The notes under the pieces are model-generated. The model was not told the origin of the DNA. It worked only from the letters and a program-made list of their open reading frames with translations, and ran no database searches. Shown here piece by piece: positions 1,851 to 61,402 of a DNA stretch of 64,000 bases. Origin of the DNA: an archaeon (lineage in GTDB: Archaea; Nanobdellota; Nanobdellia; Woesearchaeales; GW2011-AR9); assembly GCA_030704845.1 (NCBI GenBank), contig JAUYKZ010000023.1, positions 14,262 to 78,261 of the forward strand. Reading direction: 5' to 3'. A program made the position numbers and the translations under genes. Positions within the stretch are counted from its first letter, which is position 1; the number at the start of each line of letters is the position of its first letter.

Positions 1851-2228
1851 TTAATACTTACAACCGGAAAACTGGGATAGTTCTTCTATAGTTTGATATC
1901 CTTCATAAAAAGTTTCATCAATTTCCCAGGTAGGGAAATATTTTATATCTTTATCATCGCAAAGTTGTTCTTCTACTTCGGTTCCGTCGCAATCAACATA
2001 TTTATGTTTAAGATAATTCCAACCTTCTCCAAGAGTTTTTTTCTGTTCTTTACAAGGCATGCACCAACTCGCCCCATACATTACCGCTTTTTCAGCTAGA
2101 CATTGACCGAATTGAATTTCTCTTTCTGATTTTGAGAGTGGTTTTTCTTGAGTTGCCCCACATCCTAAGGTTAGAAGAAATGCTAAACCAACTCTTTTTA
2201 TTGTATCCATCAAATTATATATACTCAA
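1851..2228 (-). CDS. secreted thioredoxin-fold protein (CxxC, lipoprotein-like signal)
   Basis: N-terminal hydrophobic signal ending in LGCG. It has a WCMPC redox motif. The true start is possibly the internal Met at MDTIKR. Confidence 0.5.
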   Translation of the reverse strand: MSIYNLMDTIKRVGLAFLLTLGCGATQEKPLSKSEREIQFGQCLAEKAVMYGASWCMPCKEQKKTLGEGWNYLKHKYVDCDGTEVEEQLCDDKDIKYFPTWEIDETFYEGYQTIEELSQFSGCKY

Positions 2229-2316
2229 CGCTAAATGAAATTTGGAACTTAATTCATTTAGCGTTTGTATATACCAACGAAAAGTTCACAAAAATACTTT
2301 TCGTTCAGTATATATT
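2217..2316. repeat. Copy A of a perfect ~97-bp inverted repeat; partner at 28751-28847
   Basis: Read directly: atatactcaacgctaaatgaaatttggaacttaattcatttagcgtttgtatataccaacgaaaagttcacaaaaatacttttcgttcagtatatat. Its reverse complement appears at 28751-28847. Each copy contains two internal hairpins flanked by TATATA. Confidence 0.8.
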
Positions 2317-2422
2317 AAAGACTGCATTTAAGAGTTTTGTTAATAGGGTATATTCTAAAAGACCATTAGATGTTTCAGATGTTTCCAAAATCTTTATATC
2401 TATGCCATTTATTCTTTAAGAA

Positions 2423-5112: not shown

Positions 5113-5634
5113 ATGACTACATTAGTAAATCAATCAGTTGCAATTCTTTGTGATGGAAACAATATCGAAAGAAGTATCCATGAACAAGCCGGAAATAATC
5201 GAACCATGATTAATTTTGACAAACTTATCCCCCGCTTATTGAATAACCGCGGTTTAAATCGGCTAATTTATTTCAGGGAAGGATTACAAATCTCTGAAAA
5301 ATTAGCTGGAAGGTTATACGACAAATATTACGGTTCAGTTTTGCCATGTCATAAATCTGCAGACATTCCATTAACAATTAAAGCAACTCAATTATCATCA
5401 AAAGTTGATACGATTATTATTCTATCTGGAGATTCAGATTACGTTGAACTCGTTCGCCATTTAAGGGGTGAAGGTGTTCGGGTAGAAATTGCTGCAGTCG
5501 AAAAGACAACGGCTAAAATTCTTATCGACGAAGCAGATCATTTTCATCCAATTACTCGGGAAGATTGGTTTGTTTATGCACCTACCCGAAAATCGTTGTC
5601 GGATAAATCACCTACAAAACCTGATCGGAAATAG
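5113..5634 (+). CDS. NYN/LabA-like nuclease domain protein
   Basis: VAILCDGNNI ... ILSGDSDYVELVRHL pattern of NYN (LabA) domains. TAG stop. Confidence 0.55.
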   Translation: MTTLVNQSVAILCDGNNIERSIHEQAGNNRTMINFDKLIPRLLNNRGLNRLIYFREGLQISEKLAGRLYDKYYGSVLPCHKSADIPLTIKATQLSSKVDTIIILSGDSDYVELVRHLRGEGVRVEIAAVEKTTAKILIDEADHFHPITREDWFVYAPTRKSLSDKSPTKPDRK

Positions 5635-7089: not shown

Positions 7090-8091
7090 ATGGTTAAAGC
7101 AGGAATTATCGGGAGAGGTTTAATCGGTTCTGAGTTATATAAACGATTGATTAAAAAAAAATGGGATGTTGTTGGGGTTGCTAACAGAAGTGGTTTTTCC
7201 AAGAATTCATCCGCAACTGGAGCTGTAATTCCTATAGCCGTAAGATATGATACCCCCTCCGAGGTAATGGATGCTTTCTTTAAAGAAGATGTTGATGTAA
7301 TGTTTTTAGCTATTCCAACTCTTGACGATGGCCAAATTGCACAGGAATACATTAAAGATAGTATCTCTGCGGGTATTCCGATTGTAACTTGTGAAAAGGG
7401 AGCATTGGGAAATTATTTTAATGAAGTGTTTAATCCAGAAATGCTAGGATATAGTGCTGCTGTCGGTGGTGGAACCAGACTTCTTAGATATGCCAGAACA
7501 CAATGTGGCGGGCAGGTTGAGGAGATCCATGCCGTTGTTAACGGAACATTAAATTATATTTTTGAAGGTCTAAGTAATGGTCGAAGTTTGGGGGAAGTTG
7601 TTGACGAGACAATCGGGTTAGGTTATGCTGAACCGGGTACAGAAAACCCGTTAGATGTATTAAATAAAGAAGCGGTTGGAGATGTACCGATGAAGGCGGC
7701 TATCTTGTACAATGTTTGTGGATTAACTGAAAATAAAATTAGGGCTAAAGACGTCGAAAGAAAAGAGTTATCTGATAAAGATTTATCTAGTTTAGTAAGG
7801 GAAGCAAAAAAACGTAGATATATAGTTTCTTTTACAAGAGATGGCCGAGTGGAGGATGTAATTGGTGGATTTAAATGTCAAATTGGTGAATGGAGAATAT
7901 CTGCCGGATTTAAAAATATAGACGAGAATCCTTTATATCATTCTTTAATGCCGGAAGGTGTTAACAATGCTTTGTTAATTTCTGAGGGTAGATATGGAAA
8001 AGATGGACATTACAAAGTTTCTGGTCCTGGAGCAGGAGCAGCTCCAACGGCATCAGCGATGATTAAAGATGCAGTTGATTTGTTGAAGTAG
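7090..8091 (+). CDS. homoserine dehydrogenase family protein
   Basis: N-terminal Rossmann GIIGRGLIGS. It has the VVNGTLNYIF and GLGYAEPGTENPLDV segments characteristic of homoserine dehydrogenase. Confidence 0.6.
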   Translation: MVKAGIIGRGLIGSELYKRLIKKKWDVVGVANRSGFSKNSSATGAVIPIAVRYDTPSEVMDAFFKEDVDVMFLAIPTLDDGQIAQEYIKDSISAGIPIVTCEKGALGNYFNEVFNPEMLGYSAAVGGGTRLLRYARTQCGGQVEEIHAVVNGTLNYIFEGLSNGRSLGEVVDETIGLGYAEPGTENPLDVLNKEAVGDVPMKAAILYNVCGLTENKIRAKDVERKELSDKDLSSLVREAKKRRYIVSFTRDGRVEDVIGGFKCQIGEWRISAGFKNIDENPLYHSLMPEGVNNALLISEGRYGKDGHYKVSGPGAGAAPTASAMIKDAVDLLK

Positions 8092-14161: not shown

Positions 14162-14809
14162 TTACATGAAATGTTCTAATACCCTGGTTAATAATGATTT
14201 TGGTCTTTCACCATTTAATATTCTTACAGTTTCTATCGAAAAATTAGGAAGTTGTATGTATCCTTTATTTTTGTATTCATCAATTTGTTTTAAAGAAATT
14301 TCTATATCCTCGTGTGGAACTTTACTAAAATATATAGTTTCTACATCGAATCCTATCTGTTGTATCTGATAAGCATGCAAAGCCCCTACGATGGCATGAG
14401 TACTTTCATTATTCCTGGCTGCATTATACATAGAAAGACTTCTAAGAAAACTAAGAGCACAGAAATAATCTTTTATTTGTTTATAATGGACGCTTTCGGG
14501 GTTTAGATCTCCCATATTTAAACGATTACTGGCTAGATTCTGTAACTCGTAGATTTCATTATTTTCTATAGGGGCCATTTCTATACCTTTTTTATCTAAA
14601 TGTTTAGCTATCGACCAAAAGAAACGAAGGCAATGTGATTGTTCAAAATCCAATATATCTGGGGGAATTGTTAATAAACCCTCGATTGAAAATCTAGTTT
14701 CTAAAGATACTTTGGATTCGAGTGGTATCTTTTTTACGTAATCTATAACTTTCGGGTAATTCTTATCTCTATCGCTATGACATACTCCCACCACTGTTAA
14801 TTTTGTCAT
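14162..14809 (-). CDS. hypothetical protein
   Basis: ORF only. Confidence 0.3.
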   Translation of the reverse strand: MTKLTVVGVCHSDRDKNYPKVIDYVKKIPLESKVSLETRFSIEGLLTIPPDILDFEQSHCLRFFWSIAKHLDKKGIEMAPIENNEIYELQNLASNRLNMGDLNPESVHYKQIKDYFCALSFLRSLSMYNAARNNESTHAIVGALHAYQIQQIGFDVETIYFSKVPHEDIEISLKQIDEYKNKGYIQLPNFSIETVRILNGERPKSLLTRVLEHFM

Positions 14810-31789: not shown

Positions 31790-34717
31790 ATGATTCCGGC
31801 CGAAATAAGACTAAAAGTCATGGAAGCTGTACAAGACGATGTTAACAAAGGAATCGTTAAAATGGATTCTAATTATATGCGCCAGATTGAAGTTAATCCG
31901 GGCGATATTGTAGAAGTTGAAGGAGAACGTAAAACGGCTGCAATCGTTGACAGGGCTTATCCGGGAGATATTGGTCTTAACATTCTAAGGATGGATGGAA
32001 ATATCCGTAAAAACGCTAGAACCTCTATTGGAGAGCTAGTTAAAGTAAGGAAAGCTAAAGTTAAACCGGCACAAAAAGTTTCTATTGCTCCAATGAATAA
32101 AGGGGTTGTCATAAAAGCGTCTCCTCACATCTTTAAACATGGTCTACTTGGGAAAGCTGTAGTGAAAGGAGATATTGTATCCTTAGGTGGTGTAAGAAAA
32201 AGAGATTCATTCCAACACGGGGATATGAATAATATTCTTTCAATCATGGAAAACCAATTTGCTAGTTTCGGATTTGGCGATTTAAAATTTATTGTAACTG
32301 ATTCTAATCCTAAAAAGGAAATTGTAATTATTACTCAAGATACAGAAGTAGAATTTAATCCGCATCCAGTTGAGGTAAATGAAGATGAAGGATTAAAATT
32401 AGGTATTAATTATGAAGATATCGGTGGTTTAAGCGATGAAATAAAAAAAGTAAGAGAGATGGTTGAATTACCATTAAATCATCCCGAAGTCTTTGAACGT
32501 CTTGGAATCGAACCGCCAAAAGGAGTTCTTCTTCATGGCCCACCCGGTACTGGTAAAACCTTACTTGCAAAAGCGGTAGCATCAGAAACAAATTCTCATT
32601 TCATACTTATCAATGGTCCAGAAATTATGAGTAAGTTCTATGGAGAAAGTGAGCAAAATTTAAGGAAGAAATTTGAAGAGGCCGAACAAAATGCTCCTTC
32701 AATAATTTTCTTTGATGAAATTGATGCGATAGCTACAAAACGTGAAGAAACTAAAGGTGATGTTGAAAAAAGAGTTGTAGCTCAGCTTCTCGGATTAATG
32801 GATGGTCTAAAAAATAGAGGGAAGGTTATCGTAATTGCTGCAACAAATATTCCTAATCAACTTGATCCGGCTCTTCGTCGTCCGGGAAGATTTGATCGAG
32901 AGATAGAGATTGGTGTTCCTGATAAAAATGGAAGATTAGAAATTTTAAAGATTCACACGAGGAATATGCCGTTGTTGGGTTCTCTTTATGGAGATATATT
33001 AATCAAAGAGATTCCTAATAGTCTGAAGAGAAAAAAGATTAATTTAGATAATCAACTTAATGATAATCAGATAAAAGTAACAGCAGCCATGGAGAAAATT
33101 GAAAAAATTAAAATTAAAAAAAGAAGTAAAGAAGAAGAACTTAAAAATTCAGAAAATGAGCTTAAAAATTTAAAATGTGAATTTGAAGATTTAAATAACA
33201 AAAAAGATAAAGCTGATGAGAATCTAATGTATAAAATTCTAGAGAAAATAAACGGACTAAATAGAAATATCCAAGAAAAAATAACAAAAATAAGCCAAGT
33301 AATTGAAGAAATAGAAATAATACATCTAGAATTAACTAAATATTCAGAAGAGATTGTTAATTTAAATTTATTAATTGAAGAATTTGAAAAAGAAAAAGAG
33401 AATATTAAATATATTCAGAAGGAATTAGGTAGTTCTATTGTAACATTACATAATCTTGCGGAAGAATTAAAAATTATTGATGATGCTAAACATCAACATT
33501 CTATCAAGGATCCCGCATATCACATTTTTGATAACAGGGCGAGTTCTTATTATACACAATTAGATAAACTTGATTTAGTTAAAGATATAATTGAGAAAGC
33601 AAGAAGAGCAGGTATACCCAGAGATCAGTTTGAAATAGCCAAAATTACTCATGGGTTTGTCGGTGCAGACTTAAGTGCTTTAGCTAAAGAAGCAGCGATG
33701 ATTGTCTTACGAAGAATTCTTCCAGAGTTAAAAGTTGAAGGTATCGGCGAAGATGTTCCAATTCCGAAAGAAATTCTTGAAAAGATTATAATTACTCAAA
33801 AAGATTTCCTTGAATCATTAAAAATGGTTCGTCCAAGTGCAATGAGGGAAGTTTTTGTTGAAACTCCTGATGTTTCGTGGAATGATATCGGCGGTCTTGA
33901 TGATGTTAAAGAAAAATTAAAAGAAGCAGTTGAATGGCCGTTAAAAAAACCAGAAGTCTTTAAACGGATGGGTATCCGTCCTCCGCGTGGAATTTTGTTA
34001 TATGGTCCACCTGGAACGGGTAAAACATTACTCGCGAAAGCTGTCGCCAAGGAAAGCGAAGCAAATTTCATTCTAATCAATGGTCCAAGTTTACTAAGTA
34101 AATGGGTTGGCGAATCTGAGAAAGCTGTCAGAAAAATTTTTCAGAAAGCTCGACAAACAGCTCCGACCATTCTATTCTTTGACGAAATTGATGCGTTGGT
34201 TCCTAGAAGGGGCCCAAGTAGTGATTCTAGAGCGAATGAGAAGGTTGTTAATCAAATGTTAACTGAGATGGACGGTCTAGAAACATTGAATGATGTTGTT
34301 GTAATTGCTGCAACAAATAGACCGGATATCGTTGATCCAGCTTTGTTACGACAAGGAAGATTTGATCGAATAATTTATACTCATGCTCCTAATGAAGAAA
34401 CAAGGAAACAAATTTTTGAGATATACGTTGGAAAAATGCCAATTAGCGAAGATGTTGATGTGGCTGTACTTGCAGCAAGAACTGAAGGATATGTTGGAGC
34501 TGATATCGAAGGTGTTTGCAGAGAAGCAGCAATGATTGCTTTACGTAGAAGTATGTCTGCAAAAAAAGTCTCCATGGACGATTTTGAAGAAGCATTAGAT
34601 GTTGTTCACGCGTCTGTTGATGATGAAACTATTAAGACGTATGAAGATATGGATAAGTATTTCTCAACTGCAAGATCTAGAGAAATTAAAGAAGAAAAAG
34701 CAAGTTATGTTGGGTAG
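31790..34717 (+). CDS. cdc48: CDC48/VCP-like AAA+ ATPase with a coiled-coil insertion of about 220 aa in D1
   Basis: N-domain, then two Walker A boxes ([15 protein letters not shown] twice) with DEID Walker B motifs and arginine fingers. Between [12 protein letters not shown] and [10 protein letters not shown] (about 32975-33643) lies a K/E/N/I-rich coiled-coil segment that typical CDC48 proteins lack. TAG stop. Confidence 0.8.
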
Positions 34718-41212: not shown

Positions 41213-41266
41213 AACTTAAAATTAAGATAATCACTTTATAAAAGTTTCTTAGATGTTTTAGAAAAA

Positions 41267-41337
41267 GCCCTCGGCGAGAATTGAACTCGCGACCTTGTCC
41301 TTACCAAGGACACGCTCTACCACTGAGCCACGAGGGC
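41267..41337 (-). tRNA. tRNA-Thr (GGU)
   Basis: Minus strand reads gccctcgtggctcagtggtagagcgtgtccttggtaaggacaaggtcgcgagttcaattctcgccgagggc. Cloverleaf with anticodon loop ttGGTaa. No encoded CCA. Confidence 0.8.
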
Positions 41338-41462: not shown

Positions 41463-41534
41463 TAGGATGCCAAAAATGTCTTCCTAAATGGTTGTATTTT
41501 AAACACAGCGACATTTTTGTGCATAAAAAAGAGT

Positions 41535-41668
41535 GTCGGGGAAGGGATTCGAACCCTCGAACCCACTAAGAGACAGGATATCTTCCAAGGAAGCCAATTA
41601 TCAATAATTGGTGCCTCATCCATGTGGACTTAAGTCCTGCGCATTTGACCGGACTTTGCTACCCCGAC
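41535..41668 (-). tRNA. tRNA-Leu (UAA) with intron of about 49 nt at position 37/38
   Basis: Minus strand reads gtcggggtagcaaag...gcaggacttaag[intron tccacatggatgaggcaccaattattgataattggcttccttggaagat]atcctg-long variable arm-gagggttcgaatcccttccccgac. The acceptor and T arm are canonical. After intron removal the anticodon stem is cagga/tcctg with loop cTTAAga. The intron carries its own ccaattat/ataattgg hairpin. Confidence 0.55.
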
Positions 41669-52905: not shown

Positions 52906-52944
52906 GGTAATATATATAAAGTATCACTATAAAAACGTTTCCAT

Positions 52945-53217
52945 ATGATGTTATATGATGCAGAAGTTCAGAAAGTATTGGATAAAATAAAAGAATCTAA
53001 TGCAAAAACCGTTTGCATTCAGCTACCGGATGGTATGAAACCTTATGCAAAAGAAATTGAAGAAAAGATTAGGGAAGAAACTGGAGCAAGAGTTTTAATC
53101 TGGCTTGGAAGTAATTTTGGTGCTTGTGATATTCCTTTAGGTTTAAATAAAATGGGAGTCGATCTTCTCGTCTCTTGGGGACATAACATTTTCCATAAAA
53201 AAATGGAGGGATGGTAG
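52945..53217 (+). CDS. dph2: Dph2 N-terminal segment (2-(3-amino-3-carboxypropyl)histidine synthase), ends at in-frame TAG
   Basis: VCIQLPDGM...VLIWLGSNFGACD...SWGHNIF aligns with the archaeal Dph2 N-terminus. Confidence 0.6.
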   Translation: MMLYDAEVQKVLDKIKESNAKTVCIQLPDGMKPYAKEIEEKIREETGARVLIWLGSNFGACDIPLGLNKMGVDLLVSWGHNIFHKKMEGW

Positions 53218-53220
53218 AAG

Positions 53221-53970
53221 ATGGAAACATTATTCTTAGAAGCGACTTATTCAGGAACCGTAGAATTATGTCCAGAGACTATTTCTTACCTAACGAAGAA
53301 AGGGTATACCAAGATTGGATTATATGCTTCCGTGCAGTTTGTTGGAAAACTGGAGACGGTAGAATCACAACTTAATGAACTAGGGGTCACTTCGGTTACA
53401 TCACGACCAGATAGAACTCACGTTAAAGGACAATTGTTAGGTTGCGACAATTATCATAATTCTTTAAATTTAGATAAAGATATTCAAGTTTACCTATATG
53501 TCGGCGATGGACGTTTTCATCCTCTAGCTTTAGTTTATGCTCAGAAGGATTCTAATGAGATGAAAGAAATTATTTGTAATGATCCCATTAATAAGAGGAT
53601 GGTTTTAATGGGAATAGAAGACATTTGTACTATTCTTAAAAAATATCGTGGGTCGTTGGTTAAATTCTTCACAGCTAAGATGGTGGGTGTTCTTATTACG
53701 ATTAAACCTGGGCAAGAACAATTTAAACCGGCTCTATTATTAGAGAAGAAATACCTCGATAAAAGGTTCTATTACTTTATTGACAATGTTATATCTTTTG
53801 ACCAGCTCGAAAATTTCAATTTTATCGACGTATGGGTCAATACTGCTTGTCCGAGGGTAGGATTTGACGACCAAGAGAAGTTTGTTAGAGGAGTAATTAA
53901 TCTAAATGATGCTCTCTCGGTCGAGGAGATCCTTGGAAAAGAGAGTGTATTTAATAAAAAAATCCAATAA
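53221..53970 (+). CDS. dph2: Dph2 remaining segment, same frame, ATG one codon after the TAG
   Basis: QLLGCDNYHN, VGDGRFHPLAL and VNTACPRVGFDD align with the Dph2 domain 2/3 cysteine motifs. Confidence 0.6.
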   Translation: METLFLEATYSGTVELCPETISYLTKKGYTKIGLYASVQFVGKLETVESQLNELGVTSVTSRPDRTHVKGQLLGCDNYHNSLNLDKDIQVYLYVGDGRFHPLALVYAQKDSNEMKEIICNDPINKRMVLMGIEDICTILKKYRGSLVKFFTAKMVGVLITIKPGQEQFKPALLLEKKYLDKRFYYFIDNVISFDQLENFNFIDVWVNTACPRVGFDDQEKFVRGVINLNDALSVEEILGKESVFNKKIQ

Positions 53971-54186: not shown

Positions 54187-54570
54187 ATGGCTGAACTTGT
54201 AGCAAAAGTTGGACTTAAAAAAGAGCCTGGATTTCTCTATTTCCTAGACAAAGGCGGAAACGTTGCTCGAGCTCGTATGAGTCGAGTTAAAATGCGAGGA
54301 AAATCCAAGATCGAAGTAGTAGCAAAAGTAGGAGTTAAAAAAGTATCCGGATACCTTTACTTTATTGATAAGAAAGGTAATGTTTCAAGAGCAAAAATGG
54401 CTCGTGGAAGAAAATCTGGAAGCGGTAAGAAAAAAGTTGCTAAAAAGAAAGTAGCAAAACGTAAAGCTGCTCCAAAAAGAAAAGCTGCTAAAAAGAAATC
54501 GGTTAAGAGAAAAGCTGCTCCAAAAAGAAAAGTTGCTAAGAAAAAAGTAGCTAAGAAAAGAAAAAGATAA
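54187..54570 (+). CDS. lysine-rich small protein with a duplicated module of about 31 aa and a histone-H1-like KRKAAPKRK tail
   Basis: ELVAKVGLKKEPGFLYFLDKGGNVARARMSR is repeated as EVVAKVGVKKVSGYLYFIDKKGNVSRAKMAR. Tandem DNA repeats of agaaaagctgctccaaaaagaaaag encode the tail. Confidence 0.5.
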   Translation: MAELVAKVGLKKEPGFLYFLDKGGNVARARMSRVKMRGKSKIEVVAKVGVKKVSGYLYFIDKKGNVSRAKMARGRKSGSGKKKVAKKKVAKRKAAPKRKAAKKKSVKRKAAPKRKVAKKKVAKKRKR

Positions 54571-60754: not shown

Positions 60755-61148
60755 ATCAATTAAAGGATTAGTTGATGATATACTTAGTGAAAAAATTGAT
60801 GTGCCAGATAACGCGTTAATTATAGATTTTGATGCAACTCAAAATATCTTTACTAAAAAAAGGATAGAGTTATTAGATACTATTAATTCTTACCAGCCGG
60901 CTTCTGTTCAAGAATTATCAGATCTTGTTAAGAGGAAAAAACAAGCGGTTGATAGAGATTTGAAGATGTTAGAAGAGTTTGATGTGATCACACTTGAAAA
61001 ACGAGGTAAGTTTACTGTACCAACTGTAAAAAGAGAGATTATAATACTCAGCATCAAGAAACCAAAACCACAAACAGAAATCATAATCAGTGCTGAGGTC
61101 TATGTTGATAGTATTAATATTAACAAAATAATGGAGATACCACAATGA
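60702..61148 (+). CDS. winged helix-turn-helix protein (MarR/ArsR-like)
   Basis: SVQELSDLVKRKKQAVDRDLKMLEEFDVITLEKRGK wHTH-like segment. Overlaps its neighbours. Confidence 0.35.
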   Translation: MIKMKHELEKKELKRKAESIKGLVDDILSEKIDVPDNALIIDFDATQNIFTKKRIELLDTINSYQPASVQELSDLVKRKKQAVDRDLKMLEEFDVITLEKRGKFTVPTVKREIIILSIKKPKPQTEIIISAEVYVDSININKIMEIPQ

Positions 61149-61402
61149 CTATTAAAAGAAAAGTAAAACGTGTTGTCGATGGAGATACTTTTGAAGTATT
61201 TAAAGCCGTTAGAGACAGCCATTTTATTCGGTTAGCTGGTGTTAACGCCCCTGAGAAATATCAGAAAGGGGGAATAGAGGCAACAAATAAACTAAGGCGT
61301 TTAATTGAGGGTAAGACTGTTACTTTAGTCCCCACAGGGAGGAGTTATGGTAGGTTGGTAAGTGATGTAAAAAGCAGTGGGAAAAAAGTAAATAAACTAT
61401 AG
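61145..61402 (+). CDS. truncated staphylococcal-nuclease-like (SNase/OB-fold) protein
   Basis: VVDGDTFEV...IRLAGVNAPEK corresponds to the DGDT...RLxGxDxPE core of thermonuclease. At 85 aa it lacks the C-terminal catalytic Arg/Tyr region. ATGA start/stop overlap with the upstream gene. Confidence 0.4.
   Translation: MTIKRKVKRVVDGDTFEVFKAVRDSHFIRLAGVNAPEKYQKGGIEATNKLRRLIEGKTVTLVPTGRSYGRLVSDVKSSGKKVNKL

Follow-up and report, generated by a model that had tools for sequence, protein, structure and literature searches.

Dph2, a 2-(3-amino-3-carboxypropyl)histidine synthase, is the archaeal radical S-adenosylmethionine (SAM) enzyme with which the making of diphthamide on EF-2 begins. Here, we deal with a locus at which this enzyme is encoded by two consecutive genes, dph2-N and dph2-C, parted by a TAG stop codon and three further nucleotides (nt). 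The locus lies on contig JAUYKZ010000023.1 of assembly GCA_030704845.1, from an archaeon of the Woesearchaeales, in the 64,000-nt stretch between positions 14,262 and 78,261, which is called the window below. How does such a divided gene compare with what has already been described? Split Dph1/2, with one gene for the N-terminal domain and another for the C-terminal domain, is reported from DPANN archaea including Woesearchaeota by Narrowe et al. (2018, Genome Biol Evol 10:2380; PMC6143161), and the review of Dombrowski et al. (2019; PMC6349945) lists it for Parvarchaeota, Pacearchaeota, Woesearchaeota and Altiarchaeota. The window also holds two separate genes, their split is common to related genomes, and the host is a DPANN archaeon; protein, two-gene organisation and broad lineage are the same, and there is no essential difference. 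The split dph2 of the window is an ordinary member of this published DPANN-wide family, already known and nothing new in kind. What the accessible parts of these papers do not mention is the constant break point, the variability of the junctions in frames, stops, inserted genes and unlinked halves, the selection on both pieces, the division of the cluster cysteines between them, the recurrent insertion of genes between the halves, and a conserved hairpin element in some relatives.

The nanoarchaeon Nst1, a DPANN archaeon in which a number of genes are split, likewise has its Dph2 in two genes, Nst 222 and Nst 440, according to Podar et al. (2013, Biol Direct 8:9; PMC3655853). These locus numbers suggest that its halves are distant from each other in the genome, while those of the window are separated by 3 nt. 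The other split genes of Nanoarchaeota named there (reverse gyrase, AlaRS, RNA polymerase B and others) encode different proteins, and share with dph2 the fission of a gene in a genome-reduced DPANN archaeon, the retention of both halves and their presumed reassembly. Many of the splits in N. equitans are lineage-specific and unlinked, whereas that of dph2 is widespread, with 72 species genomes or more, and in most cases its halves are linked.

Archaeal Dph2 of the single-chain type is a homodimer, with structures from P. horikoshii (3LZC/3LZD), Candidatus Methanoperedens nitroreducens (6BXM) and Methanobrevibacter smithii (6Q2D). The [4Fe-4S] cluster of the P. horikoshii enzyme is held by Cys59 (followed by Asp60), Cys163 and Cys287, and not by a CX3CX2C motif (PMC11048331). 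The Dph2 of the window has the same fold, the same three cysteine ligands and a colinear sequence, but is made of two chains, the first of which ends at about residue 90. It resembles the eukaryotic Dph1-Dph2 heterodimer in that two different polypeptides come from two genes. However, eukaryotic Dph1 and Dph2 are full-length paralogues which arose by duplication, each with its own cluster motif (PMC11048331), while the two chains of the window are complementary fragments of one protomer.

Two halves of one Dph2

A preliminary description of this DNA, made from the sequence alone, had pointed out two open reading frames (ORFs) in the same frame, parted by a TAG (53215-53217) and a single AAG and followed by an ATG at 53221, and the sequence bears this out. 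The product of dph2-N ends in GHNIFHKKMEGW, directly before the TAG, and that of dph2-C begins with METLF. Gene callers elsewhere start dph2-N at its second Met (52948), which gives 89 amino acids (aa), and public data list the two products individually (P0001 of 249 aa and P0121 of 89 aa). The Pfam profile PF01866 (Diphthamide_syn; cut-off 33.2 bits) matches the N-piece over profile positions 1-58 with 40 bits, the C-piece over positions 65-287 with 116 bits, and the continuous reading across the TAG over positions 1-287 with 166 bits. Therefore, the two pieces are colinear halves of one Dph2. The NCBIfam profile TIGR00322 (cut-off 35 bits) agrees with this, with 68 bits for the N-piece, 115 for the C-piece and 190 for the fused reading.

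Where in the protein does the break fall? In alignments to the sequences of solved Dph2 (6bxm, 6q2d and 3lzc) it falls in an indel-prone loop, flanked by the strands DLLVSWGH on the upstream side and TLFLEA on the downstream side. Together with the predicted secondary structure, these alignments put the break into a surface loop of the first domain, with strand beta-3 before it and beta-4 after it. The preliminary description had aligned this region to a Dph2 loop without any gap; colinearity stands, while the gap-free part does not, as the junction is gapped and the solved proteins are 4-7 residues shorter there.

The cluster ligands are divided between the two polypeptides. Alignment to 3lzc, in which chain position 95 minus a 36-residue tag equals residue 59, places Cys61 of the N-piece (in GACD) on Cys59 of the P. 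horikoshii enzyme, and Cys75 (in LLGCD) and Cys210 (in NTACPR) of the C-piece on Cys163 and Cys287. All three are invariant: Cys61 in 70 of 70 N-pieces, and Cys75 and Cys210 each in 76 of 76 C-pieces. Because one ligand is on the N-piece and two are on the C-piece, the enzyme would work only as a complex of the two.

Both pieces are under strong purifying selection. Against three sister genomes, the method of Nei and Gojobori gives the N-piece a dN/dS of 0.06-0.23 and the C-piece one of 0.07-0.10. Each piece also gives the Dph2 fold when modelled alone. The N-piece has a mean predicted local distance difference test score (pLDDT) of 82.7, and its top 15 fold matches in the PDB are all archaeal Dph2, with TM scores normalised to the query of 0.60-0.68; the C-piece has a pLDDT of 75.8, and its top 15 matches are again all archaeal Dph2, with E-values down to 1.6e-12. 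Low confidence in the C-piece model is confined to residues 1-7 (the strand beside the break), 63-83 (the loop of Cys75) and 211-219 (beside Cys210). It is these segments that should depend on the partner and on the cluster, which is suggestive only. Since the model of the N-piece has three main strands only, the C-piece probably donates a strand to its sheet.

Conservation of the split and variation of the junction

For comparison, DNA was taken from 79 GTDB species-level genomes, which are metagenome-assembled genomes of DPANN type (with Woesearchaeota, Nanoarchaeota, Nanoarchaeia, Pacearchaeota or Nanobdellota in their titles, apart from some bins labelled automatically as 'uncultured Methanosarcinales'), and the two pieces were placed on it by tblastn. 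Both are present in 72 of the 79 genomes. In all of these the N-piece, 42-79% identical to that of the window, lies upstream of the C-piece on the same strand, and in nearly all the break is at the same position or within a few residues of it. An N-piece was not found within 3 kb of the C-piece, even by a profile search, in the six most distant relatives (L073, L074 and L076-L079; loci of relatives are labelled L with a number), which are Nanobdellota/Nanoarchaeota bins of 36-39% identity. Their C-piece begins at the same residue as elsewhere (at about 3001 in each locus, 2209 in L079), and the two halves are presumably unlinked in them, as in Nst1. At a seventh locus without an N-piece match, L064, the contig end cuts the locus.

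The host of the window itself is consistent with a DPANN archaeon: the archaeal lipid enzymes CarS and CDP-alcohol phosphatidyltransferase are encoded in the window, whose GC content is 33.7%. As a side observation, many bins carrying the woesearchaeal type of split Dph2 are titled 'uncultured Methanosarcinales archaeon' (e.g. L002-L006, L010 and L011), which, given their gene content and likeness to Woesearchaeota and Nanoarchaeota bins, looks like a default or mislabelled taxonomy.

Protein searches give the same picture. The best 120 homologues of the C-piece are all of 235-269 aa, with identities falling from 100% to 62%, and the best 120 homologues of the N-piece are all stand-alone proteins with lengths of 84-103 aa. 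The C-piece was also compared exhaustively, by HMMER, with 1.84 billion sequences that each represent a cluster at 50% identity. Of the top 150 of these, about 145 are as long as the C-piece or shorter and align from their own N-terminus, with identities that fall to about 30%; the full-length proteins (284-324 aa) number only five and first occur at an E-value of about 1e-23. The split is thus seen in more than 100 protein clusters and hundreds of metagenomic proteins, and neither these homologue searches nor the sister loci contain an unsplit orthologue among close or moderately distant relatives.

In the closest sisters, known from independent JGI, ENA and Logan assemblies, N-pieces are 90-96% identical to that of the window, and the gene order is also that of the window: CarS, an ORF of 121 aa, CDP-alcohol phosphatidyltransferase, dph2-N, dph2-C and Dus. 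The identical junction ATGGAGGGATGG-TAG-AAG-ATG is found, at 93% nucleotide identity, in three assemblies which are independent and differ in sample and source (JGI 3300004210, ENA ERZ27293400 and JGI/Logan 3300025150, all reading TGG-TAG-AAG-ATG), and one Logan contig encodes products identical to those of the window, of 89 aa and 249 aa. A sister group of 80% identity (L083-L085) has TAA-AAA-ATG at the same place, and one further sister has TAG-AAA-ATG. Because sisters carry either TAA or TAG, what is kept is the presence of a stop and not TAG as such. The spacer of one codon defines a small sub-clade of the window genome, L080-L086 and L007.

Beyond this sub-clade the junction is highly variable. 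Over 73 junctions (those of the 72 relatives and the window), the N gene ends with TAA in 43, TGA in 18 and TAG in 12. The halves are adjacent in 38 of them, with spacings in the relatives from -10 nt (an overlap) to +14 nt. The commonest spacing is 1 nt (17 cases) and the commonest form TGG-TAA-G-ATG. The frame offset at these adjacent junctions is +1 in 17, +2 in 13 and 0 in 8, so that 30 of the 38 are out of frame. At the other 35 junctions the halves are 40-2139 nt apart, in many cases with unrelated genes between them. Most members of the family therefore cannot make a fused chain, and since frame, stop and spacing all vary among relatives, the in-frame geometry of the window is incidental. 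An excess of in-frame junctions was also considered as a possible hint of selected read-through; eight of 38 compare with about 12.7 expected, and there is no enrichment. It is to be noted that runs of N, which are masked positions or scaffold gaps, lie in or beside the junctions of L038 (about 2868-2880) and L008 (about 2740-2750), and that the one in L038 makes the N-piece look frameshifted, which is due to the assembly and not to biology.

The in-frame TAG and its alternative readings

Taken together, dph2-N and dph2-C are very probably two real and separately translated genes which jointly encode Dph2, with the TAG in the common frame by accident. The family would go back to a single early fission of dph2 in a DPANN lineage. 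In the window, the two genes, being 3 nt apart, are presumably co-transcribed. An A/T-rich, TATA-like stretch, TAATATATATAAAG, sits in the 39-nt divergent intergenic region upstream of dph2-N and is a possible archaeal promoter of a bicistronic transcript; a separate promoter of dph2-C has no room outside the coding sequence of dph2-N, because the spacer has only 3 nt. Ribosomes would terminate at the TAG, and the C-piece would be initiated at its own ATG, served by the Shine-Dalgarno (SD)-like word GGAGGG contained in the last codons of dph2-N (ATG GAG GGA TGG). An SD-like word is found 4-18 nt upstream of the C start at 29 of 35 adjacent loci, compared with about 12% of random positions. Read from sequence, an SD in the upstream gene together with a 3-nt spacer is the classic layout for translational coupling of two subunits. 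It would favour coupling and an output of about 1:1, although coupled and independent initiation are both compatible with it. The two polypeptides would then assemble non-covalently, most likely as (N+C)2, and the [4Fe-4S]/SAM site would be formed only in the complex. The 3-nt spacer, inherited within the small sub-clade, would bring the TAG into frame by accident, and would mark neither an interruption, nor an error, nor a recoding signal. The preliminary description had leaned towards a diphthamide synthase in two parts, the second one started in close coupling to the first, and had proposed comparison with orthologues of sister genomes; the comparative data support that option, as the sisters share the split with TAG-AAG-ATG or TAA-AAA-ATG.

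A few points weigh against it. The profile TIGR03682 (arCOG04112), the equivalog of archaeal Dph2, has a cut-off of 202.8 bits, and the fused reading reaches 195.1 bits (the separate pieces, 55.7 for N and 131.9 for C, are also below it), although the cut-offs of PF01866 and TIGR00322 are passed and the three Fe-S cysteines and the fold are those of Dph2. This shortfall is ascribed to divergence of the lineage from characterised Dph2, and divergence together with the split gene makes automated equivalog naming fail. The assembly and the activity of any split Dph2 are what we infer from sequence. Finally, some minor read-through of the TAG may give a fused chain in the one-codon-spacer sub-clade.

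TAG is the leakiest stop codon. It might be imagined that low read-through in this sub-clade supplies a minor fused Dph2 next to the two-piece form, as an evolutionary intermediate of re-fusion, and, separately, that the junction is an insertion site with a regulatory hairpin element; we regard this combination as highly improbable.

A stronger form of this idea is programmed recoding, in which the TAG is read through by near-cognate suppression or as pyrrolysine and the main product is a fused Dph2 of 341 aa. The two ORFs are indeed in frame and one codon apart in the window genome and its nearest sisters, and seven other adjacent junctions are in frame. Nevertheless, the out-of-frame majority of adjacent junctions and the 35 genomes with separated halves speak against it, and the junctions use all three stops in all three frames, with TAA in the sisters L083-L085, so that neither a conserved stop identity nor a conserved in-frame position, as expected for recoding, is found among orthologues. 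Read-through is also unneeded, and the downstream ATG and its SD-like motif are conserved. The ATG stands 3 nt past the TAG, which leaves a dedicated recoding signal no space outside the coding sequence. A tRNA-Pyl or other suppressor tRNA was not found among the tRNAs of the 64-kb window, all ordinary, the window being a small fraction of the genome. TAG ends 20 of 72 ORFs in a mechanical, non-overlapping ORF set of the window (TAA 35, TGA 17). This count also rejects a global reassignment of TAG, and the judgement of the preliminary description that TAG is an ordinary stop here (e.g. 5632-5634, 8089-8091 and 34715-34717, all of which are TAG) and that global recoding is unlikely holds. The chance that recoding makes the main product appears very faint.

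Could the C-piece alone be the working enzyme, with the ORF of 90 aa as a dispensable relic? The six distant loci without an N-piece nearby might be taken in this way. But the N gene is kept in the 72 genomes at a dN/dS of 0.06-0.23, and it carries the GACD cysteine, one of only three ligands of the cluster. Moreover, in Nst1 both halves are retained even though unlinked (PMC3655853). Such a relic is barely conceivable.

The remaining possibilities, both raised in the preliminary description, have practically no probability. A lone in-frame stop in an otherwise colinear Dph2 looks like a fresh nonsense mutation that is making dph2 a pseudogene, but a break at this position, or within a few residues of it, in 72 further genomes, its occurrence in over 100 protein clusters, the low dN/dS over both pieces with invariant catalytic cysteines, and, in most genomes, an ATG and an SD-like signal belonging to the downstream piece are incompatible with this, and neither relaxed selection nor intact orthologues in close relatives, the marks of a pseudogene, are found. 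A sequencing or assembly error hiding a sense codon at the TAG, for which there is the general possibility only, is contradicted by the same junction in three independent assemblies, by the Logan contig with identical products, and by TAA or TAG at the same place in more distant sisters. General decay of the genome, which many other interrupted genes would have suggested, was also considered; the neighbours and all closely abutting ORF pairs of the window were scanned with Pfam, and the pairs belong to different families, with no other pair in one family.

Features around the junctions and in the window

Coordinates of the features at the locus and of a junction element in relatives are collected in Table 1.

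Table 1. Positions of dph2 features in the window and of the junction element in loci of relatives.
Feature	Position	Strand	Basis or remark
dph2-N gene, N-terminal piece of Dph2, 90 aa	52945..53217 (including stop)	+	ORF, PF01866/TIGR00322
dph2-C gene, C-terminal piece of Dph2, 249 aa	53221..53970 (including stop)	+	ORF, PF01866/TIGR00322
TAG stop codon of dph2-N, genuine terminator	53215..53217	+	orthologous stops TAA/TGA/TAG
AAG spacer between dph2-N and dph2-C, 3 nt	53218..53220	+	sequence
Codon of Cys61 of N-piece (GACD), first [4Fe-4S] ligand	53125..53127	+	3lzc alignment
Codon of Cys75 of C-piece (LLGCD), second [4Fe-4S] ligand	53443..53445	+	3lzc alignment
Codon of Cys210 of C-piece (NTACPR), third [4Fe-4S] ligand	53848..53850	+	3lzc alignment
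SD-like GGAGGG, 11-16 nt before ATG of dph2-C (putative function)	53205..53210	+	sequence
A/T-rich TATA-like stretch TAATATATATAAAG, 24-37 nt upstream of ATG of dph2-N	52908..52921	+	sequence reading
Junction element, L019	2865-3000		
Junction element, L068	253-389		
Junction element, L026	2874-3000		
Junction element, L023	2915-3000		
Junction element, L040	2888-2984		
Junction element, L008	2717-2796		
Junction element, L015	about 2181-2320		

In many of the 35 genomes with separated halves, accessory genes are wedged tightly between dph2-N and dph2-C, often overlapping the stop of the N gene and ending at the start of the C gene. They belong to a family that we call A (L005, L011, L015, L027, L044 and L066), to UDG (L020, L034, L035, L052 and L057), to HicB-like proteins (L004, L028, L029, L034 and L043) and to YhcG/DUF1016 (L011 and L051). 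Single loci carry an NYN gene (L069), a 2'-5' RNA ligase-like gene (L070) and, on the opposite strand, an M23/LysM gene (L018), and inserts in L022 and L029 have no assigned family. The Dph2 junction behaves as a recurrent insertion site for several families, including a toxin-antitoxin component and nucleases.

Another observation outside the window is a conserved element of 60-90 nt, present in at least seven genomes and at the Dph2 junction only. It consists of a hairpin with compensatory changes in its arms, followed by CTCTTTGGnTGnTAAnCTTTGTAAAGnTTA, which forms a second hairpin of 8 bp, while its 3' part is a diverged second copy of the tail of the N gene (e.g. FNKKVGW and a stop) directly before the downstream ATG. 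RNAalifold predicts 20 pairs, five of them with double changes. As a dispersed mobile repeat the element was rejected, with no other copy in the 86 loci and none in the window at up to three mismatches, and as a known RNA as well, with no Rfam match at E<=1. It might regulate expression of the downstream half; alternatively, it could be a small Cys-containing ORF.

Elsewhere in the window, an Rfam tRNA match of 135 nt and 45.7 bits at 41534-41668 on the minus strand, about 200 nt from the tRNA-Thr at 41266-41337, was not reported by ARAGORN and is probably an intron-containing archaeal tRNA. Just downstream of dph2-C, an ORF of 127 aa without a Pfam match (54187-54570, plus strand) has an internal tandem duplication, VAKVGLKKEPGFLYFLDKGGNVARARM / VAKVGVKKVSGYLYFIDKKGNVSRAKM, and then a very lysine-rich tail with repeated KRKAAPKRK; the sisters L083-L085 have an ORF of 117 aa in its place. 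Further downstream, an ORF of 85 aa (61145-61402, plus strand), which overlaps the end of the preceding helix-turn-helix (HTH) ORF by 4 nt, is matched by the SNase (staphylococcal nuclease) profile over no more than positions 2-66 of its 107, and may represent a nuclease domain that is short or truncated.

What does the split mean in practice? The locus should be annotated as two genes, for the N-terminal and the C-terminal subunits of Dph2, and neither as a pseudogene nor as a frameshift or stop artefact. Dph2 is also not to be used naively as a single-copy marker of completeness in DPANN genomes, a caution about Dph1/2 as a single-copy marker already given by Narrowe et al. (2018; PMC6143161). 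With its constant break, the one-plus-two division of cluster ligands and the free linkage of the halves, this family shows clearly how a protein can, in nature, be split through its active site.

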